Positions 95 through 22,433 of a stretch of 22,478 nt of DNA are shown piece by piece. Origin of the DNA: a virus (lineage: Duplodnaviria; Heunggongvirae; Uroviricota; Caudoviricetes); the IMG/VR virus record IMGVR_UViG_3300021400_000025, positions 1-22,478 of that record. One strand, written 5' to 3'. Numbering within the stretch: position 1 is the stretch's first letter; each line of letters starts with the position of its first letter. The translations under genes were made by a program, and so were the position numbers. The notes under the pieces are model-generated. The model was not told the DNA's origin and did not search any database. It saw nothing but the letters and a program-made list of their open reading frames with translations.

Positions 95-134
95 CAAAAA
101 ACAGAATAGGGGTTTGGTTTTCATTTCGGTTTGT

Positions 135-141
135 GTAAATA
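135..141 (+). promoter_or_regulatory. Putative late promoter GTAAATA for the tail sheath gene
   Basis: The motif recurs in the correct orientation upstream of eight genes in the window and resembles the T4 late promoter TATAAATA. Confidence 0.65.
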
Positions 142-220: not shown

Positions 221-3200
221 ATGGCAAATCGTACAATTTCCAGCCCTGGGGTTGAGATAATCGAACATGACTTGTCTGGTTATACGACCACCAATCTGGG
301 AACCAACTGCCTCGTCACTGGTTTTGCTCAGAAGGGCGAAGACCTTGAGCCTATTCACATCACGAACCGCTCAAGTTGGCTTCTGAACTTCGGTGCGCCA
401 ACCAATGAGGCCGAGGAATACTTCTACAATGCTGGCATGGAGGTCTTGAATCAACAGGGCTTTCTCTATGCTGCGAAGATTCCCTATTCAAACGACATCG
501 CTGGCATCTATGCTGCGGCGAAATACACAATCAGTTCTCCACGCGATTTGTATGAACTTGATGAAGAGGAGGGGTTGTATTATTCTTGGACGACCAATGA
601 ACTTGGAGAGCCAGTGAAGAAGTACAGAGATGCTGAGGACGAGCTTCCTGGACATCCACTTGGGCGTTTCTACAAGAACTACCGTGGACTCAAGGATCTT
701 GGCGTAAACAGTCTTCAGTTGATTGCTCCTACTGGACAGGACTTCATTTCCAAGGATTTGGTTGAGGAGTATGAGACAGGTGAATCCGCTCCAGGCTCCA
801 ACGTCATCTATCTCGTTGACAAGACAAGGGCTGTGTACACTCGCGCCCCCGAGATTGCAGACAAGCAGAGCAACCGCGATTCAAGGTATTGCATTGGCAT
901 TGTGCCTGTGATAACCACCCTCTGCAACACTGCATGGTTCCAGAAGAACATAACGGGGCTTGAGTCTGATGTGGATGAACTCTATCAGCCGGTGCGTTCT
1001 TTGAGGACGATTGAGTTCCCAGCAGGAGCTGCTTCCGCAGCGGAGTACAAGCCAACTAAGTTCGTTGCTGACGATCTCCACACCCAGTTGCTCAAGGGGC
1101 AGGGCGTGTTCCAGGCATCCCTTTCAGAGCAGGCCGCGACGATTGCGCAGTCATGCCTCTCCAATGGAAACCTTGTTGATGGCAAGTTCAAGCCATTCGT
1201 CTGCAACGATGTGTGCGTTGTTGTGTTCAAGGCGTTCGTCTCCACTGAGGATGGTAAGATTGACTTCACCCCTGTTGAGACTTGGGTTGGCTCTCTTGAT
1301 CCAAATGGACGCAACGAGAAGGGTCTGACAACGTTCATCGACACCATCATCAACAACAACTCCGAGTACATCTACTGCTTCTCCAACCTTCAGGATCCAC
1401 AGAAGGTTCTGAATCCAGACCATGGCTTCGTGGCTGGCTCCGATGTGGAGTATGAGACTGCGAAGGAGGATCATCAGAACGACACCGAGTATCAGGCGGC
1501 GACATTGTTCTCCGCCTACGCGGCTGCGATGCTTGGCTTCAACAAGGGCGAGAGCAACAATGAATTGCCATCGCTTGCCGCGCCAAGGGACTTCACCGAC
1601 GAGGTCTATGGTGAATCCTGGCCTGACGGAGACTTGGACGAGAATCAGGAGAAGATGAAGGAATTGTCCATCAAGACGATGGGCAACCTCCGCAAGTTCT
1701 ACAACGAAGACGCCAAGCAGCCAATCTGCACATTGGATCCTCTTGTGATGGGCAATAAGTTCTCGTTCGATGATCTCAAGGACATCGTTGAAGAGGCTAC
1801 TGACGATGGCGTTGACAGCACAGGCGTCAAGCCAAACAATCCAAACTACCTTGATGGATATGCGGGCGATTATCTGAATGGACTCAGCGATCAGTTCAAG
1901 GAGTATCTGGATGTCTCCGACAAGTTCATCACCAAGTTGCCATCAATCACCTACAAGATCACCAGAAAGGGGACTGAGTACAAGGATGGAGAAGAGGTGC
2001 CTGTGGATGAGGAGAATGGTGAAATCGTATTTGACCTGCATAGGGCGGAGAATGTGGAGAATCCTGAGAACTTTGAACTGGACTCCTATGACTACACATT
2101 CACCATGGGATCTTCCTCTGTGGATGAGAATGGAAACGGCGGCCAGGTGGACTACTACAAGAAAGACAACATGGGCAACAAGATTGCCGAGATGAAGTTG
2201 TCTGAATTGTCCATCTTCAACTCCACCGACTACTTGAGGGCAATCTACGACTTCGATGAGCTGGTGATACCGCAGACGCTCATGGGCAGCAATGAGGTTG
2301 ACTTCGACAGCGTTGAGTGGGCGCAAGTCCGCCAGGCGGCAATCCAGGCGTTGATTATCAACTCAATCCAGAAGTCTGGCAGGTTCAAGGCGAAGCTCCG
2401 CTACCTCAAGAAGGCGAAAATCAACCTTGACAGACTTGACATGAACTTCGATTGGGCTTGCATTGACGTTCCACAGACAAGCGAGCAGAAGGCGAACAAA
2501 GCAGTGGGCAAGAAGTACATTGAGGACATCTTCAAGTCCTACAACGATGTTGGTCTGCTTGGTGGAATCCAGTTCGTGGCCATTCCAGAGGAATCCTCAA
2601 CGGACTCAACCAGCAAGAACTCCGACCTTCTCTCCAAGAAGGATGCCCTTGAGGCGAAACTTGACGCAATCGTGAACATCGACACCTCCAAGAAGGAGAA
2701 GATGAAGCCAAGACAGGGGACGCAGGATCCAAAGAAGAAGTCTGAGGAATTGATCTTCGCGGAGAAGTATCTCAGGGTTCGCCAGTATCTCCAGTCCCAG
2801 TACTACGCAAAGTTGGCCGACATGCTCAAGACAATCGCCAAGATAATGGAGGATTGCACATATGCCCAGCAGCGCTATGTTGAGTCCCAGAGGAACATCG
2901 ACGACTCCAACATCATGCTTGGCTTCTATCCCGAGATGGCAGAGCCAATCATCACCTACACCACAATCGCGCAGTCCTTGAACAAGATTCTGGACAGCAT
3001 GAACAACATCAACGAGTGCGATGTGGATGTGGTGTGCGATGCAGGCATCTCCAACATCGCCCAGTTCGTGAAGCAGGTCTACGACCCAAGCGCAGACGAT
3101 GGCGAGGATGTTGGTGGTCTCTACCAGCCTGTCAAGTACAGCGCCTACTTCAAGTTCAACAAGAACACCGACTTGGCGTATTGGAAGACAATCGTGTACA

Positions 3201-4003
3201 AGTTCGATACCTTCTGCAAGTATCGTGGAGATTGCATGTTCTGCACCGAGGGTCCGCGTGGCATGGTTCTGATTGGCAACAAGCAGGTCGTGCGCAAGAC
3301 CAAGAAGGACACGAGCGTGGATCTCAACATCCTGCCATACCTCAACAAGATCACTGGATTCAACACATCCTATGGCGCAGGCTACCTCAACTGGTACCGC
3401 ACAATCAGCGACTACACGGGAGACACCCTCTGGGTTCCTCCGTCAATCAAGGCAATGGGCACATACATCCTCACCGACAAGCAGTACAACTGGTGGGATG
3501 CCCCCGCTGGAATGCGCCGTGGCGTGATCAACATGGTGGAGACCTCCTTCAATCCAAACAAGGATCAGGCAGGAGACATCTACGATGCCAACTGGAACTA
3601 CGCAATACACTATCTCAACGATGGCATCATCCAGGAAGGGCAGAAGACCTTCCAGACGAGGCAGAGTGCGCTTGACCGCGTGAATGTCCGCCGTCTGATT
3701 GGCCGCATCAAGAGGTATGTGTATCATGCGTCAAGGCAGTTCCTCTACGAGCCACATACGCAGGCAGTCCGCGAGAAGTACGTGAAGACAATCACGCCAT
3801 TCTTCCAGGATCTGATGAACAGAGGTGGCTTGTATGGATACAAGATTATCTGCGACAGCACCAACAATGGGCCGGAAGTCATTGACAGAAATGAACTCAG
3901 AGTGAAGATAGGGATTAAGCCCTGCAAGACCATCGAGTTCATCATCATCGACCTCTGTGTTCTCAACACTGGTGCATCCTGGACTGAAATGGATAGCATC
4001 TGA
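221..4003 (+). CDS. Tail sheath protein (T4 gp18-like), 1260 aa with a large central insertion
   Basis: N-terminal SPGVEIIEHDLS; C-terminal WWDAPAGMRRG, GQKTFQ...SALDRVNVRRL, ICDSTNNGPEVIDRNEL...IKPCKTIEFI; GAGG RBS at 211-214; TGA stop. Confidence 0.95.
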   Translation: MANRTISSPGVEIIEHDLSGYTTTNLGTNCLVTGFAQKGEDLEPIHITNRSSWLLNFGAPTNEAEEYFYNAGMEVLNQQGFLYAAKIPYSNDIAGIYAAAKYTISSPRDLYELDEEEGLYYSWTTNELGEPVKKYRDAEDELPGHPLGRFYKNYRGLKDLGVNSLQLIAPTGQDFISKDLVEEYETGESAPGSNVIYLVDKTRAVYTRAPEIADKQSNRDSRYCIGIVPVITTLCNTAWFQKNITGLESDVDELYQPVRSLRTIEFPAGAASAAEYKPTKFVADDLHTQLLKGQGVFQASLSEQAATIAQSCLSNGNLVDGKFKPFVCNDVCVVVFKAFVSTEDGKIDFTPVETWVGSLDPNGRNEKGLTTFIDTIINNNSEYIYCFSNLQDPQKVLNPDHGFVAGSDVEYETAKEDHQNDTEYQAATLFSAYAAAMLGFNKGESNNELPSLAAPRDFTDEVYGESWPDGDLDENQEKMKELSIKTMGNLRKFYNEDAKQPICTLDPLVMGNKFSFDDLKDIVEEATDDGVDSTGVKPNNPNYLDGYAGDYLNGLSDQFKEYLDVSDKFITKLPSITYKITRKGTEYKDGEEVPVDEENGEIVFDLHRAENVENPENFELDSYDYTFTMGSSSVDENGNGGQVDYYKKDNMGNKIAEMKLSELSIFNSTDYLRAIYDFDELVIPQTLMGSNEVDFDSVEWAQVRQAAIQALIINSIQKSGRFKAKLRYLKKAKINLDRLDMNFDWACIDVPQTSEQKANKAVGKKYIEDIFKSYNDVGLLGGIQFVAIPEESSTDSTSKNSDLLSKKDALEAKLDAIVNIDTSKKEKMKPRQGTQDPKKKSEELIFAEKYLRVRQYLQSQYYAKLADMLKTIAKIMEDCTYAQQRYVESQRNIDDSNIMLGFYPEMAEPIITYTTIAQSLNKILDSMNNINECDVDVVCDAGISNIAQFVKQVYDPSADDGEDVGGLYQPVKYSAYFKFNKNTDLAYWKTIVYKFDTFCKYRGDCMFCTEGPRGMVLIGNKQVVRKTKKDTSVDLNILPYLNKITGFNTSYGAGYLNWYRTISDYTGDTLWVPPSIKAMGTYILTDKQYNWWDAPAGMRRGVINMVETSFNPNKDQAGDIYDANWNYAIHYLNDGIIQEGQKTFQTRQSALDRVNVRRLIGRIKRYVYHASRQFLYEPHTQAVREKYVKTITPFFQDLMNRGGLYGYKIICDSTNNGPEVIDRNELRVKIGIKPCKTIEFIIIDLCVLNTGASWTEMDSI

Positions 4004-4083: not shown

Positions 4084-5496
4084 TTAGAAGAACATATCAA
4101 TTGAAAGATCCTCAACTTCTTGTTTTCTGAATATATTCACATTATTGGCAAGCATGCATTGGTGCTTGGCTTCGTAGAGACCGCACATCCAATCATACTT
4201 CTCGTCAGACCATTCTGGTTCCCGATATGGGCAATACATTTCTTCCTTTCCTGAACTTTCGTTTATTCTGAAGAAGTGTTCTCCCTTGACTTCGTAGATT
4301 CTGCCATTCACCAAAAAGTCAGGATGGTATGTGTGTTCTGCGCCATCATACATATATTGAAAGCATATTTCTGGTTGATACTCAAAGTCGATGTGATTCT
4401 CCAACAGGAAGTCATAGACCAGAAATTCCCAAGAAGAACCAAATGTCATATCGGGGTACTTGGGATTTGTGTATCGCTTGTGTGCCTTTTTGTGGTATTC
4501 TGAAGTTTGAGCATAATTGTCATATCCATATGTGTTTCGCATTGTTTGTCGTAGTTTTTCTTTCACAACTTCACTTTGCATTGGATTATCTGTTCCATAA
4601 TTCTTCCTGCTAGTCTCTCTTACTTTTATTCTCCATTCTTCTGTTCTGGAATACTCCTCGTCTCCATATCTTTCCTTGCTAGTGGCATGTGATTTCAGTT
4701 TCTTGTCCTCTGAACTGAAATATGTTGGGGCATTGAACTTCTTTATACATGTTTCCCTAACTTTGTCTTTGACTTCTTGTGCTTGGGATGGATTGGTTAT
4801 TCCCTTTCCATAGTGTTTCTCCCATTTTTCAATAGATTTTCTCTTCATTTCATCCCATTCTTCTTGGGTGCGCTTGGATATGGTCTCTCTGTACTTGTTC
4901 TTGGTTTCCTCCAACGACGACGAATGGATACCACCATGTCTTCTTTTGTTGGAGTCTATTGCTCGTTGTATCAATTCTTGTTTCTCGTTTTCTGAAAGGG
5001 AAGTCCATCTATCAGAAATCAACTTTCGACCTTCTTTTGTTTGGTTGAATAACACACCTCCATGATTTCTCCTGTCGGTTTCTTGTATCTTGTCTCTGAA
5101 CTCCTTCACTTGCATAGGATTTGTAATTCCCTTGCCATATCTTGATTCCATGGTGGTTTTATGCTTGTCCTTGTATTCTTTCGTGAGATGGGCGCATGAT
5201 GGACAACAAGTGGTATATATCTTTGCGTGGTTGCCGTGGATTTGCTTCATTACGATGTTTCCACACACTTCACAACAAACAGGTTCATTGAACTCACGGA
5301 GTATGTATTGTATTCTCGTATTGTAGTCGAAGAATTCAGGTAAAAACGATGTATTGACCATTATCAAGGTATGCATGTACTTGTCGTTTTTTATCTTGCG
5401 TAGGAAGCAATTTGAGTTCTTGTTTACGAACTTTTCAACAATATCCCTAACAGGATTTCTTTCGTCGTCAATTTCATGTATAATTTCATTAGTCAT
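4084..5496 (-). CDS. Putative free-standing homing endonuclease: Zn finger, repeated (K/R/H/N)YGxxNPxQ helical units, C-terminal PD-(D/E)XK domain
   Basis: CEVCG...CCPSC; repeats RYGKGITNPMQ, HYGKGITNPSQ, NYGTDNPMQ, TYGYDNYAQ; nuclease motif YHPDFLVNGRIYEVKG; visibly AT-richer than the sheath gene; TAA stop. Confidence 0.75.
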   Translation of the reverse strand: MTNEIIHEIDDERNPVRDIVEKFVNKNSNCFLRKIKNDKYMHTLIMVNTSFLPEFFDYNTRIQYILREFNEPVCCEVCGNIVMKQIHGNHAKIYTTCCPSCAHLTKEYKDKHKTTMESRYGKGITNPMQVKEFRDKIQETDRRNHGGVLFNQTKEGRKLISDRWTSLSENEKQELIQRAIDSNKRRHGGIHSSSLEETKNKYRETISKRTQEEWDEMKRKSIEKWEKHYGKGITNPSQAQEVKDKVRETCIKKFNAPTYFSSEDKKLKSHATSKERYGDEEYSRTEEWRIKVRETSRKNYGTDNPMQSEVVKEKLRQTMRNTYGYDNYAQTSEYHKKAHKRYTNPKYPDMTFGSSWEFLVYDFLLENHIDFEYQPEICFQYMYDGAEHTYHPDFLVNGRIYEVKGEHFFRINESSGKEEMYCPYREPEWSDEKYDWMCGLYEAKHQCMLANNVNIFRKQEVEDLSIDMFF

Positions 5497-6577: not shown

Positions 6578-7399
6578 TTAGTTGAGTTCTATTAGCTGAG
6601 ATTCTGTAAACTCAATGTTTCTGAAAACCTCGATTGGGTTAGGTTTGGTCTTGAACCTCACAGCATCCAGCCTTTCTTGAATCTTTTTCAGTGTCTCTAC
6701 AGGAAGCACATCAAGCGGATTGGGGCATCCCTTGACATTTCCCCGAAGCAATGTGTCCAGAGCATCATAGCTGAACCCAATCTTGTCCTCGTCTGTCTTT
6801 CCAGTCAATCCATCAGATGGAGCCTTTTCCACAAGGTCGCGTGGAATCTCGTCCATCGTCAGACCAATGGCAACCACCTCGTTTTTGGTGAGATCTATAA
6901 GGGGCTTGAGGTCTCCACATTCGTCTCCCCAACGAGTGAAATAGCCAGTGATGTATTCGGACAGATTGCTGGTGTTGATAACCCTTCCACCAACCGTCTG
7001 GCTCACTGCATACAATGTGGTCATGCGAAGTCGTGGAGCAAGGTTGATGAGTGTCTGTTCGGACAGCTCAACCACCATGTCACCCAATGCGTCAATCGCT
7101 GCATTTCCAATTGCGTCATACGCGCCCTTGATGTTCACTGTGACGTTGGGGATGCCAAGGGCTTCGCATACTCTGATGGAGTCCGAGATGTCCTTCTGCT
7201 CACCATTCGGCATGAGAACGCCAAGAACTCTGTCTGTTCCCAACGCCCTTGCGCAAAGCGCGGCAACAATCGTGGAGTCCTTTCCTCCAGAAATTCCCAG
7301 GACAGCCTTGCTTGTGGGACCGTTCTTCTCAAACCAGTCCCTAATCCACTGAACGAGATTGTCTCTCGTCTTCTCTGCGTTGAAATATGTCATGTCCAT
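6578..7399 (-). CDS. nadE: NH3-dependent NAD+ synthetase
   Basis: ISGGKDS PP-loop, NLAPRLRMTTLY, GYFTRWGD, KAPSDGL...TDED; 273 aa with no glutaminase domain. Confidence 0.95.
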   Translation of the reverse strand: MDMTYFNAEKTRDNLVQWIRDWFEKNGPTSKAVLGISGGKDSTIVAALCARALGTDRVLGVLMPNGEQKDISDSIRVCEALGIPNVTVNIKGAYDAIGNAAIDALGDMVVELSEQTLINLAPRLRMTTLYAVSQTVGGRVINTSNLSEYITGYFTRWGDECGDLKPLIDLTKNEVVAIGLTMDEIPRDLVEKAPSDGLTGKTDEDKIGFSYDALDTLLRGNVKGCPNPLDVLPVETLKKIQERLDAVRFKTKPNPIEVFRNIEFTESQLIELN

Positions 7400-7416
7400 T
7401 TTAGTTTTTCCTTTGC

Positions 7417-7722
7417 TTAGATTTCCTTGATATGAACCACAAACTCGAATTCCTCGCCGACATGGAGGAAATACTTGTCACGGTTCTCTTGGGTTTCTCT
7501 CCTATAGGTTGTGAATGGGATGTCCTTGTCTCCCAAGAACACGAGTTGGATGTAGTATTCGCCCATCTTGAACTCGTACAATCCATCCGTATCGTATTCC
7601 AAAGCCTCCTTGGGGAAGGTCTCGTCCATCTTCACCAATTCAGCATGGATTAACCTCCCACTTCTCTGACCATGCATCTTGGAAAAGTCGTGCCTGAACA
7701 TCACTACGTGGTCGTCGTTCAT
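7417..7722 (-). CDS. Hypothetical protein (101 aa)
   Basis: ORF tightly packed in the operon; AGGAG RBS; TAA stop. Confidence 0.75.
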   Translation of the reverse strand: MNDDHVVMFRHDFSKMHGQRSGRLIHAELVKMDETFPKEALEYDTDGLYEFKMGEYYIQLVFLGDKDIPFTTYRRETQENRDKYFLHVGEEFEFVVHIKEI

Positions 7723-7723
7723 T

Positions 7724-7936
7724 TCAATTTCTCCTTCTTCTTTCTACTGGTGCTTCCATTTTCCTTCCACATCCAGGGCAATACCTGTAGGTTTCATGGA
7801 AGGTCTTGATTTTCTCCTTCGCCTCGTTGGTGGAATTCCAATCCGCGTATTCCATGAACCCGCAATTGGAGCAGGTGGCATACTCGTATTCAAGGACATA
7901 CCAATGCGCTGTTAGGGTGTAGTTGTCGTTGTCCAT
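7724..7936 (-). CDS. Small zinc-ribbon protein
   Basis: CSNCG...YCPGCGRKM double CxxC; packed in the operon. Confidence 0.75.
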   Translation of the reverse strand: MDNDNYTLTAHWYVLEYEYATCSNCGFMEYADWNSTNEAKEKIKTFHETYRYCPGCGRKMEAPVERRRRN

Positions 7937-7951
7937 TTCAGTTCCCCTTCC

Positions 7952-8095
7952 TCAGTCAAACTCACCAGAAACGCCATCAAAGCAAGTGCTAAATGTGCAG
8001 TCTTTGCGTGAATGGCAATCGCATGGGCAATCTGTGTACCTGCACACCTCTTCCCCATATTCGTTTTCATGTAGGTTTGGACATTTGAATTCCAT
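7952..8095 (-). CDS. Small Cys-rich protein (47 aa), absent from the ORF track
   Basis: Manual translation MEFKCPNLHENEYGEEVCRYTDCPCDCHSRKDCTFSTCFDGVSGEFD*; AGGAG at 8106-8110; fills a gap in the operon. Confidence 0.65.
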   Translation of the reverse strand: MEFKCPNLHENEYGEEVCRYTDCPCDCHSRKDCTFSTCFDGVSGEFD

Positions 8096-8116
8096 TATTT
8101 CAGCTCTCCTTATCAA

Positions 8117-8278
8117 TCACAGATAGAAATCCGATGATGAAATTTGCTTGTTTTTCAAATACAACTTAACCGTGATGCGTTTGTCGTCGCAGCAATAGTC
8201 ATCAACTACAGATATACTGAGGTTTTCCTTGATGTAGTTTTCAATGAACTTCTTCAATTCCTTTTCCGTCTTTGGCAT
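8117..8278 (-). CDS. Small hypothetical protein (53 aa), absent from the ORF track
   Basis: Manual translation MPKTEKELKKFIENYIKENLSISVVDDYCCDDKRITVKLYLKNKQISSSDFYL*; starts 1 nt after the upstream stop; GGAGG RBS. Confidence 0.7.
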   Translation of the reverse strand: MPKTEKELKKFIENYIKENLSISVVDDYCCDDKRITVKLYLKNKQISSSDFYL

Positions 8279-8279
8279 G

Positions 8280-9752
8280 TCAATTGCCCTCCTTGTTGAT
8301 TCTGTCCCTGATTTCAGCGAACGTGGTCTTGTTGAGCATCACGCCATCCTTGAACACGGTCTTGAGTTCCGAGGCGTTCTCGTTGAGCATGGTGTCATGT
8401 TCATCCGTCTCAAAGAGGTTGCCATCGCTGTCCCTCTGAACCCAGACGATTCCCTTGTGGCTCTTCTTCAACTTGCCGGTGTCCGTCTTCGGATCCTTGT
8501 AGATGAAGTGGAACTTGCCATTCACCACGCCAGCGCAGGACTTCATGGCCAATCCAAATGTGTCTCGCGTGTTCACAATCAGCTTTTCGTTGTCAAAGAT
8601 TCCCGTGAAGCAGAAGGCCCCCACGCCCAGAACCAAATTGTTTGCAGCATACTTGTGTTCTTCCATCCATTCCCAGATTCTGCGCACTGTGAACAATGTG
8701 CATCCATCTCCAAGGATGATTCGGATGTGATCGTTGAGGACACTATATCCCTTCGCGTTGTCATATCCACCAAAGGTTGCCCAAAGGTGATCCAACGTCT
8801 TGGTCACGGTCTCAAACTGGTCTCCAGAATCAGGGCGGATTAGCAAAGTCCCATTGTGCTTGAGGATTTCACCCTTGAGCGAAGGGATGATGTTGTCCAC
8901 CAGATTCCAATAGTCATAGGTGTCGCTCACCATGCTGAACGAGGTGTTGGGGTAGATTTCCGTCAGCATCCTCTTGATGAAGGTCACTTCGTCGCCGTCA
9001 ATGGCGTAGTTGCTTGCCATCACACTGTGTTCGGTGCTTACTGCGCCAACACCAATCTTGGTGTTGGAGACATCTGCATCATAATACTTGTCAATGTAGG
9101 GAAGGGCAGGGATTGTGCTTGTCTTGTTGAAGCAGGTGAGCCATGCAGCGGAGCATCTTGCCGCTTCGTTCGTGCAGCTCATTCCACGCATTCCAAAGTC
9201 CGACATTGCGTTCTTGGGGTCGCCATTGTCCACGGTCTTGTCGTAGAACTCCTTTGCCAGTTCCAGATACATCTTGGAGATTGTGGCATGGTTGCAGGTC
9301 TTCCAAAGTTCAGCCTGAAGGATGCATTCAATCCACTGGACGAGCCAAGCGAAGTTGTCGTTGGTGTTCGTGACCTCAATGCAGGGGATGCCCATGTTCA
9401 CCGAAGTGCCCTCTGGGATTGCGCGAATCTGAAGGGGAAGGTATCCAAGCCTGTGAAGGTCAATCACGCCCGACACGTCATACCCTCCTTGGGGCAACTG
9501 AACCTTCATGTACTTCTCGTACTCCTTCACCACATCGTTGATTTCGCGGTCAAAGAAGTTCTTCTTGAAGTAGTCAACAAGGAATTCCTGGATGAAAGCC
9601 TGAAGCCCAAAGAACACCATCTTGTCGCAGGTCTTCAACATGGACTTTCTCGGAGTCCAATACGAATAGAGTTTGGTCAATCCAGCGTTGTACTGGAGCC
9701 TGTGCGTTTGCTTATACGTGTCGCACAACAACATTGCGTTTGTGTCTATCAT
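8280..9752 (-). CDS. NAMPT/NadV-fold phosphoribosyltransferase (Namat-like), probably nicotinate-preferring
   Basis: DTYK, DFGMRG, STEHSVM (phospho-His site), VSDTYD, IRPDSGD, KDPKTD..KKSHKG motifs. FNKTSTIPA aligns to human NAMPT [9 protein letters not shown] with D219 replaced by Ser212. Confidence 0.92.
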   Translation of the reverse strand: MIDTNAMLLCDTYKQTHRLQYNAGLTKLYSYWTPRKSMLKTCDKMVFFGLQAFIQEFLVDYFKKNFFDREINDVVKEYEKYMKVQLPQGGYDVSGVIDLHRLGYLPLQIRAIPEGTSVNMGIPCIEVTNTNDNFAWLVQWIECILQAELWKTCNHATISKMYLELAKEFYDKTVDNGDPKNAMSDFGMRGMSCTNEAARCSAAWLTCFNKTSTIPALPYIDKYYDADVSNTKIGVGAVSTEHSVMASNYAIDGDEVTFIKRMLTEIYPNTSFSMVSDTYDYWNLVDNIIPSLKGEILKHNGTLLIRPDSGDQFETVTKTLDHLWATFGGYDNAKGYSVLNDHIRIILGDGCTLFTVRRIWEWMEEHKYAANNLVLGVGAFCFTGIFDNEKLIVNTRDTFGLAMKSCAGVVNGKFHFIYKDPKTDTGKLKKSHKGIVWVQRDSDGNLFETDEHDTMLNENASELKTVFKDGVMLNKTTFAEIRDRINKEGN

Positions 9753-9800
9753 GATTTTCCTCTCTTGCCAATTCCGGCTAGGTTTAGGGTTTAGTGTTTT

Positions 9801-9822
9801 CCACCAAGAATCCCCTTGGTGG
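9801..9822 (-). promoter_or_regulatory. 5' leader hairpin CCACCAAG-GGGATT-CTTGGTGG
   Basis: 8-bp perfect stem 10 nt downstream of TATAAT; same loop as 12332..12353. Confidence 0.7.
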
Positions 9823-9832
9823 CAACAATTTA

Positions 9833-9861
9833 ATTATACCATATTTGGTGTTGGATGTAAA
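9833..9861 (-). promoter_or_regulatory. sigma70-type (early) promoter for the NAMPT-like gene to nadE run
   Basis: TTTACA (9861-9856), 17 nt, TATAAT (9838-9833) with extended TG. Confidence 0.85.
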
Positions 9862-9880
9862 GGGGGTCTGATGAGTTTCC

Positions 9881-10360
9881 TCAATTCCCAATGGCGGAAA
9901 CAATGTCCTTCTTCATCTTCGCCACATCAAAGACGTATCTGGTATCGTCCTTGTCTCCATACACAGGGTCGCCCTCGTTGTTTCCATAGGCAGCTTTCTC
10001 TTCGTGGTTGTAGGCGTTGCCATCTTCTGGAACATGGGCGTGGATTTCTCCATCCTCCCCAATGTAGAGGACGAACACAAGTGGCAGCTCCCAATCTCCT
10101 CCAGCAGCAACCCAAAGCACAGGGAACGCAGAATCCCCTTCTCCCCCAAGCATCTCATATCCGTCAAGTTCCTCAAGTCCAGGAAGGTGGTTGAAGGAAT
10201 CTTCTGTGCCAAACTCCTCCAGGTTCTCGGTGTCAAATCTCACAACGGAAATATCATCGTCAGCAGGTGTCTCATACACTGCATAATAGATGTCATCATG
10301 CTTGCCAATGGCATTCTTCAAGTCCTCAATCGTCAAGTTCTTCTTCGCTTTCATGTTCAT
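9881..10360 (-). CDS. Acidic hypothetical protein (about 159 aa; start 10360 or 10354)
   Basis: AGGAGG RBS overlapping the upstream stop; core AGGDWELPLVFVLYIG...HVPEDGNAYN. Confidence 0.8.
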   Translation of the reverse strand: MNMKAKKNLTIEDLKNAIGKHDDIYYAVYETPADDDISVVRFDTENLEEFGTEDSFNHLPGLEELDGYEMLGGEGDSAFPVLWVAAGGDWELPLVFVLYIGEDGEIHAHVPEDGNAYNHEEKAAYGNNEGDPVYGDKDDTRYVFDVAKMKKDIVSAIGN

Positions 10361-10367
10361 GCCCTCC

Positions 10368-11207
10368 TTAGAATTCGTGGATGATCTTGATTTTCTCGTT
10401 TGCCTCTCCACGGAAGATGGAGTTGGTGGTATAGATGGTCTTGATGAGATCTCCCTGAATCAGCTTGCCCTTCTCCTTGTCAAGAACCGAGTTCTCAAGG
10501 TGGGTGACATAGCAGTTAATGTCGTTTGCCCCCTTGTCCTTCAACGCGCAGGCCGAGTGGTAGAATGTTCCACCATAGGCGCAAATGTCGTCAATCATCA
10601 TAACGTTCTTGCCCTTGAGGTCGTCGTAGCCGGCGATGTCGATTCCCAGAATCTTTCCGGTCTTCCAATCGCGCTTCTTGATGCCAAATGCAACCGGAAG
10701 TCCCAATGGGGCGAGGAGGTCGCTGTACCTCTTGCAAGCACCTTCGTCAGGGAAGTAGAGAACCACATCCCTATCAGTTGCAGCGAAGTGAAGAGCCATC
10801 TGGACATCCTCGGCCACGCAGTTGAAGTCCACATCTACGCGGTCGAACAACGCCTCGCTTACAGTGCTGTGGGGGTTGCAAATGGTGACGCCCTCGAATC
10901 CAAGCCAGTTGATTGTGTCAGCGAATGCCTTGAGGGTGAATACCTCGTCCGAGTTCTTCACCCTGTCCATTCGTGCGTTGGGGACATAGGGAAGGTTCAG
11001 CCAAATTCTGCACCTTGCCTTGCTCTTGAGGTGCTTTACGAGCGCGATGAGCTGAAACAACTCGGCGTCGTTGTCGTATAGCCAGGTGATTCTGTATGCC
11101 CCATCCACGAAAGTGGGGTTGTACTTGATGAGCTTCGTGCCATCAGGGAACATTGTGGGGGTGATTTCCACGGTGTTCTGGTTGTTCAAGTCTTCTACTT
11201 TAATCAT
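10368..11207 (-). CDS. Ribose-phosphate pyrophosphokinase-family protein, Adps (ADPR-PP synthase)-like
   Basis: FPDG, LPYVPNARMDRV, NPHS, FPDEGACKRY, KKRDWKTGKI, IDDICAYGGTF (non-canonical PRPP loop), YVTH; adjacent to the NAMPT-like gene. Confidence 0.9.
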   Translation of the reverse strand: MIKVEDLNNQNTVEITPTMFPDGTKLIKYNPTFVDGAYRITWLYDNDAELFQLIALVKHLKSKARCRIWLNLPYVPNARMDRVKNSDEVFTLKAFADTINWLGFEGVTICNPHSTVSEALFDRVDVDFNCVAEDVQMALHFAATDRDVVLYFPDEGACKRYSDLLAPLGLPVAFGIKKRDWKTGKILGIDIAGYDDLKGKNVMMIDDICAYGGTFYHSACALKDKGANDINCYVTHLENSVLDKEKGKLIQGDLIKTIYTTNSIFRGEANEKIKIIHEF

Positions 11208-11238
11208 AGAGATTTCCTCGTTTCATTGATTTGCCTAT

Positions 11239-11268
11239 ATTATATCATATTTTGGTTGATGTTGTCAA
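11239..11268 (-). promoter_or_regulatory. sigma70-type promoter for the Prs/Adps-like gene
   Basis: TTGACA (11268-11263), 18 nt, TATAAT (11244-11239) with extended TG. Confidence 0.85.
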
Positions 11269-11718
11269 TGTGGTTCGTTGGTTTTTATCACAATGGTTTT
11301 GAACGAACTAGAATATGGTGGTTATTGCATCGTCCGTGATGTTTGTTGTATGATCGTTGTCCTTTTGTACCACAAAATTTAATGTTTGGTTTAGTGTATT
11401 GAGTTTTGTGATGCGACAGCCATTGTCCATCAAATCCTGCAACACTTCAAATACCAATCCCGCATCAGTGGTTCCTTTTTGGTATATGACGAATTTGACG
11501 CAGAAGTTTTTTGTTATTCTGTTCACGCACATGTATTCACACCCCTTGAAATGCCTTTTGAATTTTTTAATCATTTTGGGCATGTCAAAGCCGCAATCCT
11601 CGTAGTCTTCAGGATACAACCAAAACTCCTTGCTAGTATCTATGTCAATCTCATTGGGATTTGTGAATTTTGGCAAGAAGTCAGTATACCAGTTCATGGT
11701 TTGTGCTACAGAAGTCAT
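11245..11718 (-). CDS. AT-rich hypothetical protein; ends at TAG 11308 (136 aa) or, if TAG is read, at TGA 11245 (157 aa)
   Basis: ATG at 11718 with AGGA upstream; first stop is TAG at 11310-11308; the frame then stays open for 20 codons to TGA. Confidence 0.65.
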
Positions 11719-11740
11719 GTTGCATTTCCTTTCTGTTAGT

Positions 11741-12295
11741 TCAAACCACTTCAATCTGGCACATACCCATCGTCTTTAATGCGGCTTCGTGGGTCTCTGG
11801 CGTGACCCCGGCAGTGCAATCCCTCAATACCTTGATGGTGCTGTTGGGGAAATGGGCGCGTAGCATGAGCGCGTTGCTGACCACGCAAATGTCCGTGCAA
11901 AAGCCAACAATCGTGAATTCGTAGTCGGTCTCAAAGGTTGTTATGCCATTCCATCTCAGGGTTGCAGCAAGGTGGTTCACCATCCAAGTCGAACCAAATG
12001 TGGGTTTTTCGTAGATTTCGGCATTCTGGATTGCCTTTGTTTTGCTCACCTCTTCAGGCATGTGCCATCCCCAAGTTCCCCTTATGCAGTGTTCAACAGG
12101 AAGTTTGCTCCCCTCAAGGGTATTCAGGTAGTTCTTATCGTGGGTGTCCATGGTCACATGGATTTCGTCATACTTTTCATTCTTGAGCAGTTTGACGATG
12201 TTGGGCAATGCCTTGATTGCCTCTTCGTTGCGCAACGCGCCTGTGATGAAGTCGTTCTGGACATCAATCACAATCAGTATCTTTTTCGTAGCCAT
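11741..12295 (-). CDS. pncA: Nicotinamidase (isochorismatase-family cysteine hydrolase)
   Basis: IVIDVQNDF, DTH, HCIRGTWGW, EKPTFGS, GFCTDICV (Asp-Lys-Cys triad and metal ligands); GGAGG RBS; NAD gene context. Confidence 0.88.
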   Translation of the reverse strand: MATKKILIVIDVQNDFITGALRNEEAIKALPNIVKLLKNEKYDEIHVTMDTHDKNYLNTLEGSKLPVEHCIRGTWGWHMPEEVSKTKAIQNAEIYEKPTFGSTWMVNHLAATLRWNGITTFETDYEFTIVGFCTDICVVSNALMLRAHFPNSTIKVLRDCTAGVTPETHEAALKTMGMCQIEVV

Positions 12296-12365: not shown

Positions 12366-12394
12366 ATTATACAACATCTTGGTGGAAATGTAAA
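12366..12394 (-). promoter_or_regulatory. sigma70-type promoter for pncA
   Basis: TTTACA (12394-12389), 17 nt, TATAAT (12371-12366); 13-nt ACCCCCTTTACAT identical to the promoter region at 9855-9867. Confidence 0.85.
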
Positions 12395-12560
12395 GGGGGT
12401 TTTCCATTCAACTACTTAACGGCTGAAGACCGTTGAGATTGAGGGTGATTAAGTTTTCCTCAAATTTTCTTGCTTCAATGTCGATGGTTTCATCTTGGAT
12501 GTTTGACATTCAAAATCAGAGCCTTCAACTCCACAAGCGTTAATTCCCGATGTTGCATCG
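12390..12560 (-). ncRNA. Predicted TnpB omegaRNA (scaffold overlapping the tnpB 3' end, guide about 12407-12390); boundaries approximate
   Basis: After the stop: AACGG-TCTTCAG-CCGTT hairpin then AAGTAGTTGA, resembling the hairpin plus GTAGTTCA-type right end of tnpB elements. The low-conservation C-terminal tail of TnpB fits scaffold overlap. Confidence 0.6.
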
Positions 12561-13708
12561 GTACTCAAAGTCTTGATGATGTCTCGTAGAGCGAAAGACT
12601 TGATGTTCTTCGCCGCATTGACATCTCTATCCAAAGTCATCCCACATTCAGGACATGCATATGTTCTATCGGTCAACTTCATATGTTGCCTATGACCACA
12701 ATTGGAGCAAATTTGCGTAGAGGGTTGGAATCGACCTATCTTCAATAGTCGTTTTCCTCTTCTTTTCAACTTGTAGCCCAACATGGACGTGAATGTGTAG
12801 TATGACAGGTCTGACACTTTCCTTCCCCATCGCTTCATCATTGCCTTTAAGTTCAAATCCTCTATGCAAATCGCCTTGACTTGGCTCTCGTCAGACAATT
12901 TGGTGGAGAGATTGTGCAGGAAATTATTGCGTTGGTTGGAAATGTGGTTGTGGCATTTCGCCACTTTCAGTCTTTGCTTTCCTCTATTATTGCTTCCTTT
13001 TTGCTTTCTTGAAAGTTTTCGTTGTTCCTTTGCAAGTTTGTCCAATGCCTACTTGAAATATTCTGGCGAGTCTATTTGTGTTCCATTGTCTAATGTCAAG
13101 AAGTGCTTCAAACCGAAATCAATGCCAATGGAGTTGTTTCTTGATATTTCAGAATCAGATACTATTGGCTTTTCAACTTCTGAAGTATGGACGATGAAAC
13201 TGACGAAATATTGACCACAGGCGTTCTTGGAAATGGTTGCTGTTCCAATTTTGCCCTGTTTCACTTTCCTTGAAAAGACGCATTTCAACCTGTTGTCTTC
13301 GTTCTTCTTGTTGAGGAACTTGGGTATTTGAATCTTCTTGTGCTTGAAGTCCAATTTCAATCCAGATGGAACTTCAAAAGATTGCTGATTATCATATTTT
13401 GACTTATATTTTGGGAATCCACCTTGATGTCTGAAGAACTTCTGATATGCCTTGTCAAGATGCCCAATTGTATTCTGTAACGTAGTTGCTCCAACTTCAT
13501 ACAGCCAAGGATTGTCCAACTTGAGCTGCTTGAAGTCATTTGAAGATGCTATGGACATCCAACCAAGATGTTTCTTGGATTGAGCATATTGTCTGGTGTT
13601 GTAGTCCAAAGCCCAGTTATAGACGAAACGTACAGAACCAAAGTGCTTTGCAAGAAGCACTTTTTGTTCTTCGTTTGGATATAATCTGAACTTGTAACTC
13701 TCAATCAT
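12449..13708 (-). CDS. tnpB: RNA-guided endonuclease TnpB, 419 aa with one in-frame TAG (13051-13049)
   Basis: YKFRLYPN...GSVRFVYNWAL HTH, GFPKYKSK, RuvC-I GIDFG, RuvC-II IEDL, CSNCG/CPECG, RuvC-III DRDVNAAKNI. The two track ORFs are in frame: SPEYFK-TAG-ALDKLAKEQRKLSRK. Confidence 0.93.
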
Positions 13709-13716
13709 GATAATAT

Positions 13717-13723
13717 TATTTAC
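13717..13723 (-). promoter_or_regulatory. Putative late promoter GTAAATA 8 nt upstream of the tnpB ATG
   Basis: Minus strand TGTGTAAATA-ATATTATC-ATG; the same TGTGTAAATA precedes the sheath gene. Confidence 0.65.
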
Positions 13724-13760
13724 ACAATTTCATAAGAAAATTTTGCTCTTATGAGAATAT

Positions 13761-13789
13761 TTTACAAAAATATTTTCAAGTGGTATAAT
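13761..13789 (+). promoter_or_regulatory. sigma70-type promoter pointing away from tnpB
   Basis: TTTACA (13761-13766), 17 nt, TATAAT (13784-13789) with extended TG; same class as the NAD gene promoters. Confidence 0.75.
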
Positions 13790-13795
13790 TACTTT

Positions 13796-13893
13796 GAAAG
13801 GAGATGGCGAATTCATCGCAAGGGCTAAAAAGAACCTTGCGTTTCCTTCGCCAAATATATATGAAAAACGACCACCAATCACTTGGTGGTCGT
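13796..13893 (+). ncRNA. Candidate structured small RNA
   Basis: Directly behind the promoter: TGGCGAA/TTCGCCA and CGCAAGG/CCTTGCG nested stems (13805-13853), then an 11-bp hairpin; no convincing CDS. Confidence 0.45.
13864..13893 (-). terminator. Intrinsic terminator for the gene ending at 13922
   Basis: Stem ACGACCACCAA-tcac-TTGGTGGTCGT running into TTTTT on the minus strand. Confidence 0.75.
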
Positions 13894-13921
13894 CTCTGGA
13901 TTCAGTCTGTCCTGGCAATCG

Positions 13922-19408: not shown

Positions 19409-20431
19409 ATGAAATCAATCAAGACAGCAATGGCGGCAATCGCAACGATGGCAACCACCATGGGGTTTGGTGGGGGACTGTACATAGTGTCTGGTGGGGA
19501 CTTCAGAAGATGTGACGCATACTGGAAAGTTGTCACGACATAGGACAACCAGACAGTGTACGCCACGCCTAAGTTCAACTAGCAGATGAGAGCGAGCATA
19601 TACGATTACTCCGCGTCAATCAAGATAGACAACTCGGTTGAGTTTCAACTTGGCAAGGAGGAGTTGCCTCGCGACAACTCTTCCATCATACAGCGCATGC
19701 AATACACATTTCCCAAGGCTGGCATACACACCATAAAGCTCTACGACCCAAATACCACCGTGAAACGCCTTATCATAGGGGAATCCCAAAGCGACCCACA
19801 GGAGACAACAATCAAGGAGTTGAAGTTCTTGGGATATTCAGTGAAGGGAGCAACCACCAACACCATAGAGAACTACACATGCTTCAACCATGTGGCTTTG
19901 GAGAAGATTGTCATCCCAGAGGGCGTGATGGGGATTGGATATCTGGCGTTTGGAAGATGCACAGGTTTGACGAAAGTGCATCTTCCCGATTCAATACGCA
20001 CCATCGGCACCGCGTTCTGGAACTGCTCCAACTTGCAGGAGATAAACATTCCATTGGGAACGACCTCTATTTCGGGCTATTTCTGCCAGGGGGCTGCAAT
20101 CAAGGAGATTGAGTTCCATTCAGAATTCACCAACCTCACGGGTGGTGCGTTCACGGGTTGCTCCAGCCTCAAGAAGGTGACTTTCTTGAACAAGAACATC
20201 TATGTCCAACCCTTGACAGGAAGTGTTGCTGCGTTCAAGAACTGCCCCAACATAGAGGTGATAAACTACGCAGGTACATTGTCTGACTGGAACGCCAACG
20301 AGTCCCTGGTGGGAAGATTCGGGGAAGCAACGCAGATAGCAGGAGACGACACGGCGTCCATACCAGCGAAAGGTGGAACATCTGGAGATCAAGGCGTCCA
20401 GAAGATTCTGCATTTCAGCTATGTCAAATGA
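19409..20431 (+). CDS. BspA/TpLRR-type leucine-rich repeat protein, paralog 1 (340 aa; in-frame TAG at 19541 and 19580)
   Basis: GAGG RBS and ATG 19409 in frame with track ORF 19586..20431; the N-terminus GGLYIVSGGDFRRCDAYWKVVTT matches paralog 2; repeats LEKIVIPEGVMGIGYLAFGRCTGLTKVHLPDSIRTIG. Confidence 0.88.
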
Positions 20432-21461: not shown

Positions 21462-22433
21462 ATGAAAACAATAATGACAATGGCAATGACCATGATTGCT
21501 CTGGCAATGAACGCCGGAGGCCTGTACTTCGTCTCTGGGGGCGACTTCAGAAAGTGTGATTCATATTGGAAGATTCTCACTACGGTGGACAACCAGTTGG
21601 TGGTTTCAGCAATTCCCCAAATGACACAAGGATACAAATACAGGGACGACGGAAAGGCTAACAAGGCATCCATCAAGATTGAGCCAAATGTGGAGATTCC
21701 ACTTGGCTACAGCATAGTCACAAACGTTGGAAACAACAACTACTAGATAAACTCCACCAACTATGTGTTCGCCAAAGCCGGCATACACACCATAAAGCTC
21801 TACGACCCGAACAAAACAGTGCATTAGATGCGTTTTGCAGGCGACAACAACATAGTTGCATCTTCAAACCTGGTGGAGTACAAGATGCTATCGTACACAT
21901 ATATTCAAGCAAACAGTTGCTACAACTGTCCATTGCTCGAAAAGGTGATAATCCCAGAAGGAGTTGAAAAAGTCAACTATGGCGTTTTGTGCAAATGCCC
22001 GAAATTGGTGGAGGTGACGCTTCCTGACTCAATCACCAACATGGATGGCACTGTGTTGTGGCAATGCACTGGCTTGAAGAGCGTGAACATCCCCAACAAG
22101 CTGAAAAGCATTGGATAGAATTTTTGCCATAATACGGCAGTGACCAATGTTGTGTTTCCAGCAGCATGTGAAAACATCTTGGGCTTTGGTTCTTGCCGCA
22201 ACTTGACTGAAATCACATTGCTGAACAAGAATGTGCAAGTGAATGCAAGCTGGGGCTTCAAGGACGCAACGCGCCTGAGGGTCATCAACTACGCTGGCAC
22301 TCTGGAAGAGTGGAACGCCAACGAATCTCTTGTGACTAGATGGGGTGAAGGAACAGACACAGAAGTTGAGAATCGCGCCACGATTGGCAGTGGTTCATCC
22401 GCAATCACATTGAACTACAACTACACGAGGTAA
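21462..22433 (+). CDS. BspA/TpLRR-type leucine-rich repeat protein, paralog 2 (323 aa; in-frame TAG at 21744, 21825, 22116)
   Basis: Three track ORFs lie in one frame separated only by TAG; collinear with paralog 1 (KAGIHTIKLYDPN, EKVIIPEGV, LPDSI, LNKN, INYAGTL..WNANESLV); TAA stop. Confidence 0.88.

Follow-up and report, generated by a model that had tools for sequence, protein, structure and literature searches.

The window analysed here, a stretch of 22,478 nucleotides (positions 1 to 22,478 of the virus record), is the start of a complete phage genome of 418,068 bp, referred to as G000. Between the genes of this stretch lies an element of the IS200/IS605 type, which carries tnpB as its only gene, like the TnpB-only subgroup known as IS1341. 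The features of the locus, together with a second occurrence of its promoter motif at the tail sheath gene, are the following:

12407-13860: complete TnpB-only IS200/IS605 element of 1,454 bp, with matching guide and cleavage tetramers
12449..13708, minus strand: tnpB, predicted IS200/IS605-type RNA-guided nuclease, 419 aa with code 15
13118..13120, minus strand: RuvC-I residue D197, D in 162/162 aligned sequences covering the position
12860..12862, minus strand: RuvC-II residue E283, E in 161/161 aligned sequences covering the position
12623..12625, minus strand: RuvC-III residue D362, D in 159/159 aligned sequences covering the position
12644..12709, minus strand: zinc finger C334/C337/C352/C355, from the alignment
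13049-13051, minus strand: the one in-frame TAG of tnpB (codon 220), decoded as Gln and differing between closely related copies
13717-13726, minus strand: TGTGTAAATA with the core GTAAATA, a predicted late promoter of the gp55 type that lies within the element, 8 nt from the tnpB ATG
132-141, plus strand: TGTGTAAATA, 79 nt before the ATG of the tail sheath gene (221-4003)
13805..13860, minus strand: left end, hairpin with inner stem 13817-13841 and guide tetramer GAAA (13842-13845) at its foot
13861..13864, minus strand: TCAT, the site of left-end cleavage and predicted TAM, not part of the element and 19 nt from the hairpin foot
12407..12441, minus strand: right end, guide CAAT 12438-12441, hairpin 12415-12437, cleavage tetramer TGAA 12407-12410
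12407..12563, minus strand: predicted omegaRNA scaffold, overlapping the 3' end of tnpB
12391..12406, minus strand: predicted guide (3' flank), overlapping the -35 box of a sigma70-like promoter of a nicotinamidase-like gene
13761..13789, plus strand: outward sigma70-like promoter inside the left end, 11/12 consensus match
13864..13897, minus strand: terminator-like hairpin of the upstream gene, in the left flank of the element

The tnpB gene starts with an ATG at 13708 and its TAA stop ends at 12449; no Shine-Dalgarno sequence is visible before it. Its product contains the Pfam domains HTH_OrfB, OrfB_IS605 and TNB, passes the model NF040570 (323 bits, cut-off 100) and matches the solved TnpB 8bf8 at E 2e-48, while the IS200/IS605 TnpB model NF038281 is the best-scoring one with 343 bits, yet stays under its cut-off of 425. 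In an alignment of 176 homologous sequences, fragments among them, D197, E283, D362 and the four zinc-finger cysteines correspond to near-invariant residues, which confirms the intact RuvC triad and zinc finger reported in the initial annotation. As the triad is intact, a TldR, a nuclease-dead TnpB repressor defined in the consulted part of PMC13565253 by an inactivated RuvC, was ruled out.

The element ends were assessed with the base-by-base guide/cleavage pairing rule of IS608-type elements. The left-end hairpin is stable as single-stranded DNA (z -4.4, with 0/200 shuffles equally stable), and the left rule is satisfied by 18/19 elements of the family, the fits including five different guide tetramers, as opposed to a mean of 4.3 and a maximum of 11 in 2000 rounds with shuffled guides; in this count L047 has no left hairpin and L004 is the miss. 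On the right side the rule holds by eye for 22/23 ends, wrong hairpins (L039, L059) having been dropped beforehand and L045 being the miss. Both the guide principle and the left spacing of 19 nt are described for IS608 in the part of PMC3201880 that we consulted. The predicted omegaRNA scaffold has a consensus fold across 12 members in which 19/32 pairs show two-sided change (covariation); the single-sequence fold reaches a z of only -1.5. In the own genome, no TCAT-plus-guide target was found for the guides of the three elements present there (see below), the best site having 5 mismatches in 16. Two other classes of element were considered and rejected. An IS607 element was ruled out because the genome contains no PF00239, the predicted TAM is TCAT (those of IS607 are G-rich) and the IS607 model scores 185 as against 343 bits, and an IStron, which would contain a group I intron and interrupt a gene, because Rfam gave no match within the element, only 152 nt separate the left end from the ATG and the site is intergenic.

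Searches of the 418-kb genome revealed neither a Y1 transposase (PF01797) nor a serine resolvase (PF00239). The absence of a transposase, noted from the window at the outset, therefore applies to the element and its genome but not to the family, which has tnpA-bearing members: L042 encodes a divergent tnpA of 133 aa with one TAG, and L176 a broken tnpA adjoining a tnpB2-type gene. Since L042 carries tnpA, the element in the window is a non-autonomous derivative. The outward sigma70-like promoter of the left end occurs in all three G000 elements and points to the side on which tnpA sits in L042 and L176. As a separate observation, these two tnpA-bearing elements have a second, nested left end (L042:3150-3870 and L176:2300-3000), and the TAG of the L042 tnpA sits just before the HUH motif. 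In at least three elements of the TCAT type (tnpB3, L173, L038), an ORF in the opposite orientation begins with the reverse complement of TCAT, so that the element may re-supply the promoter of that gene; outward left-end promoters or such ORFs were seen at 13761-13789 of the window, near position 822 of L003, and in L038 and L173.

The coding of tnpB has to be seen in the context of the whole genome. G000 contains 33 tRNAs including a CUA tRNA, plus a tmRNA, and in-frame TAGs occur in 57/123 genes of at least 300 aa according to simple gene calls made here; a release factor was not found in it. G000 is, judged by its own sequence, a code-15 phage in which TAG is read as Gln, and the recoding assumed in the initial annotation is thus upheld. 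PHROGs scans of 226 ORF segments from 235 called genes of at least 170 aa yielded T4-like capsid, portal, sheath, tube and replication genes as well as a gp55-like late sigma (phrog_234, E 1e-19). TAG is enriched in the structural genes, where it accounts for 20/340 Gln codons as opposed to 4/368 (p=0.0006).

Read with code 11, tnpB is split by the TAG at codon 220 and leaves an ORF of 219 aa that ends before RuvC-II, as had been stated from the window. The explanation that tnpB is a decaying pseudogene with a nonsense mutation could also point to broken copies within the family, namely L043 with an in-frame TAA and L005 with a frameshift. (A recoding of TAA, prompted by L043, was rejected, as the tnpB of L043 contains just one TAA and the genes next to it fit code 15.) We nevertheless regard decay as extremely improbable, given the genome-wide recoding with its CUA tRNA, the position of the TAG in a Gln column, with Gln at position 220 in homologues 93% and 85% identical, the intact element ends, and a dN/dS of 0.05 for the part of tnpB 3' of the TAG in comparison with L037, dS being saturated in 8/10 tnpB comparisons. 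These sequence comparisons indicate that tnpB is not a pseudogene and is under purifying selection, in agreement with the initial annotation, which had named a recent nonsense mutation in a non-recoding genome as the finding that would speak against it.

It had further been proposed that this TAG is a selected second lock after RuvC-I, which limits the nuclease to recoding infections. The truncation before RuvC-II under code 11 is compatible with such a lock, as is the TAG retained in a contig of another study that is about 98% alike, and 19/23 aligned members have some TAG before D362, so that most members are code-dependent in practice. However, the TAGs of the 23 members spread over 31 columns and column 220 has a TAG only in the window copy (1/23). 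Five contigs cover codon 220: the 96%-alike one has CAG, two more distant ones have CAA, the 98%-alike one has TAG and one short piece is ambiguous. The TAG share of Gln codons in the three tnpB genes of G000 (6/70) equals that in other motif-led genes (146/1704; both 8.6%, p=1.0), and for genes with 24 Gln codons this background rate predicts at least one TAG in 89%, roughly as observed in 19/23 members. Moreover, tnpB3 and its relative in G001 have no TAG at all, while the gp55-like sigma gene already has one: located at G000 323001-323642 (L157:3001-3642, minus strand), it contains a TAG at codon 25, after an ATG led by a Shine-Dalgarno sequence. Late transcription therefore likely needs read-through itself, and the two gates would stand in series and be redundant, likely amounting to one. 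The second lock, which is largely refuted at codon 220, is thus unlikely; codon 220 is probably an ordinary variable Gln codon with no special switch, a synonymous variant, and a new translational switch is not demonstrated by the TAG. As an observation on the sigma genes themselves, the gp55-like gene of G002 has several TAGs, and the late programme of these phages may depend on the code switch.

Altogether three tnpB genes are present in G000, the other two (tnpB2, tnpB3) being 27-29% identical to that of the window (tnpB1) at the protein level; the TAG counts of the three are 1, 5 and 0. The other two are carried by further complete TnpB-only elements (263633-265002 and 126012-127457, ends approximate), which also have the late motif, and in all three tnpBs TGTGTAAATA lies 8-9 nt before the start. 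A left-end cassette is common to the G000 elements (78% and 73% identity at the nucleotide level), and the left ends of tnpB1 and tnpB3 are 78% identical despite a protein identity of 27%.

That the same 10-mer precedes the sheath gene and tnpB was the basis for proposing a late promoter. The observation itself holds, but the window alone is no evidence for it, as three sites with at most one mismatch compare with 1.06 expected and this number was reached by 15/100 shuffles. Support for the motif is therefore drawn from genome-wide and family-wide counts. In G000, 93/117 GTAAATA sites have a gene on the same strand starting no more than 150 nt downstream, compared with 44 for the reverse complement, and control words gave 5/14, 1/9, 2/11 and 10/54 in the same test. 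Within 200 nt upstream, the motif is found at 6/13 structural and at 2/30 replication or metabolic genes (p=0.006); the remaining 7/13 structural genes, including the major capsid gene, have no motif within this distance. In-frame TAGs occur in 52/89 genes preceded by the motif only and in 3/46 genes preceded by a sigma70-like promoter only. The motif is located at most 22 nt from the ATG in twenty called genes, three of which are tnpB, so that the short spacing is a native class, and 3/5 other endonuclease genes of G000 also have it; an ORF at L151:12110, an HNH gene by PHROGs, is of the vWA type by Pfam and was excluded from this endonuclease count.

The motif of G000 is NGTAAATA and not the TATAAATA of T4, of which there is one site in the genome. 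According to the consulted part of PMC3014915, the T4 late promoter TATAAATA depends on gp55, and G000 shows both marks of a promoter of this type, a single -10-like octamer before late genes and a late sigma. GTAAATA is accordingly likely to be the late promoter of G000, a view based on the enrichment and on the analogy to TATAAATA. The alternative that it is some other AT-rich signal, in which case the timing would be wrong, could draw on the upstream DNA with just 20% GC and on the two early-type genes of 30 that also have GTAAATA. However, the enrichment is specific for strand and position, is tied to structural genes and to the use of TAG, and a gp55-like gene is present in G000, G002, G003 and G006, which together make this alternative very unlikely.

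Relatives of tnpB were gathered from viral and metagenome contigs with an alignment as the query, a scan of the viral contigs with the single protein having matched nothing. Relatives with at least 50% identity came from these contigs; the best of 25 loci found in GTDB genomes reached 41%. After removal of duplicates, and among loci whose start is visible, 17/19 family members (at least 50% identity) have GTAAATA no more than 50 nt from the start as opposed to 0/68 distant TnpBs, with a shuffle rate of 3%, and one further member has GTAAGTA; as the members are related, the 17/19 are not independent events. In-frame TAGs were found in 16/19 family members and 3/68 distant TnpBs. A survey of tnpB genes, which had been suggested as a check, thus bears out the promoter part of the initial annotation, in that the motif behaves like a gp55-type late promoter and is part of the element across the family, but not the TAG as a positioned second gate.

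The form of the motif varies between phages. T/G variants make up 106/117 sites in G000, whose three tnpBs carry TGTAAATA, whereas G002 has the A variant AGTAAATA at 15/21 sites and all three of its divergent tnpBs carry AGTAAATA. As read from these sites, the variant of the promoter goes with the carrier phage rather than with the family of the TnpB, in counts that are not phylogenetically independent. In the partial records G007 and G008, where gp55 was not found, the tnpB2 and tnpB3 homologues (55-63% identity) have no motif near the start; in G003 gp55 is present, yet its tnpB copy is frameshifted and has no motif. The tnpBs of Lak-B2 contain 8-12 TAGs, with TATAAATA near the start in 1/4 only. 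In Campylobacter phage CC_R7 (L170, L181, L185, L188, L192), TATAAATA lies upstream of tnpB in the four loci shown, which share one left end in DNA of 25-28% GC. CC_R7 encodes gp55, and its loci are a hint that late wiring may not depend on recoding, in DNA that is, however, very AT-rich.

We therefore propose, with a probability of roughly 0.7, that the locus is a transposase-less IS200/IS605 element of a family found here in DNA of TAG-recoding jumbo phages, with tnpB behind a likely gp55-type late promoter, and that its nuclease is made only late in infection, where it keeps or spreads the element. The late sigma would start a nearly leaderless tnpB transcript that runs through the right end and would yield the omegaRNA, and suppression of TAG, expected from the code of the genome and modelled for late genes in the accessible part of bioRxiv 10.1101/2021.08.26.457843, would give the full-length TnpB. 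By analogy to known TnpBs, TnpB with its omegaRNA would cut sites of TCAT plus guide in sister genomes from which the element was excised or in a near-identical co-infecting phage, and recombination would then copy the element back into the cut site; this mechanism of retention and homing is summarised in the portions of PMC10690162 and PMC13565253 that we consulted. Homing against co-infecting relatives, as initially suggested, is plausible. Moves to new sites would need a Y1 TnpA in trans, as encoded by relatives such as L042. Codon 220 would be one of the Gln codons of late genes that drift to TAG; outside a recoding infection its TAG would cut the protein short, yet it would add little, as the late sigma needs read-through too. 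More tentatively, and with somewhat less than even odds, a lineage of IS200/IS605 elements may have become an obligate parasite of recoded T4-like jumbo phages, in which unrelated TnpBs share and exchange the left-end cassette, the late promoter is tuned to each gp55 variant, and homing occurs only late and is silent in the host.

The insertion site allows a further explanation to be weighed, namely that tnpB has been domesticated as a weapon, is fixed at this position and targets a site conserved in competing phages. There is a promoter -35 box within reach of the guide, which overlaps it, tnpB is under strong purifying selection, and a second study (run X2, record 10) shows the same insertion junction with one difference in 399 bases, all of which would suit such a role. 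However, guides and flanks differ among the family members, the ends appear still competent for transposition, copies at unrelated sites with unrelated guides were partly seen, and in run X3 a contig joins this right end to a different flank from 12406 on. A related phage without the insertion, as sought in the initial annotation, does exist: in L162, whose neighbouring gene is 65% identical, the genes follow in the same order and the element is absent. Between these genes, however, the sequence of L162 is diverged, and the TCAT-plus-guide target is not kept. An exact search of the viral contigs for the predicted empty junction gave 0 matches. We consider domestication about as improbable as the second lock and prefer a mobile element that is expressed late.

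In comparison with known systems, the element has the domain set and catalytic triad of IS200/IS605 TnpB elements (ISDra2 TnpB, PDB 8bf8) as well as subterminal hairpins with guide tetramers, a structured 3' end and an AT-rich TAM (the latter features predicted here), and the 19 nt between left cleavage site and hairpin foot match IS608 as given in the available part of PMC3201880. Unlike these, it has a phage late-type promoter in the left end and a coding sequence in which TAG is Gln. IS200/IS605 elements in virulent T4-like phages are known from ISCaje1-4 of the gp55-encoding Campylobacter phages CP220 and CPt10, which, as far as the main text of PMC2853527 goes, comprise TnpB-only and TnpA+TnpB elements at varied sites whose activity is stated there as unknown; the term 'late promoter' does not occur in that text. 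The tnpBs of CC_R7, which is related to CP220 and CPt10, differ from that of the window in having no in-frame TAG. A selfish nuclease tied to a phage late promoter resembles the T4-family homing endonucleases I-TevI and mobE, although, according to the portion of PMC3014915 consulted, these have targets specified by protein and hairpins sequestering the RBS, whereas here an RNA-guided nuclease sits in a transposon. The suppressor tRNA and the enrichment of TAG in structural genes are shared with code-15 gut phages (Borges et al., bioRxiv 10.1101/2021.08.26.457843), a study whose main text does not contain the word 'transposase', while here mobile tnpB and tnpA genes follow the TAG pattern.

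The components are thus known already, namely T4-like phages with TnpB-only elements, phage homing endonucleases that are expressed late, and late genes recoded for TAG. In the main texts of the open literature we found no description of TnpB elements with a late promoter, nor anything on TnpB combined with lytic phages and co-infection; the nearest work on TnpB and phage late promoters describes a middle-expressed Cas12r. What is added here is evidence that a family of TnpB transposons is wired into the phage late programme, with a promoter variant that tracks the carrier phage. If confirmed, this would show how RNA-guided selfish elements persist in lytic phages. Annotation with code 11 splits many such nucleases into fragments, and predicted TAMs can be read from the element ends (TCAT, TTAT, TTAG, TTAC, ATAC, TTAA).

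Several other genes were observed alongside. A homing-endonuclease-like DUF7487 gene lies behind a late motif beside the sheath gene (window 4084-5496, minus strand), with a paralogue on the other side of the sheath gene at 417057-417968. An ORF of 661 aa at G000 331379-333364 (plus strand), with no match in Pfam, PHROGs or NCBIfam, is led by two late motifs, one of them at a tnpB-like spacing. At 6578-12295 of the window (minus strand), genes for NAD synthase and for NAPRTase/NAMPT-like, PRPP-synthetase-like and nicotinamidase-like proteins form an NAD salvage cluster with sigma70-like promoters and no TAG in any of its genes; such a cluster may restore NAD against NAD-depleting defences. A GDSL-like gene is flanked by the genes of two BspA-type LRR paralogues (window 19409-20431 and 21462-22433, plus strand), each with a hydrophobic N-terminus and 2-3 TAGs. 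Finally, the tail of an ORF at L003:2347-2979 (minus strand) consists of VPEP, a hydrophobic and a basic segment and resembles a PEP-CTERM sorting signal, which is a possible hint to the host group.
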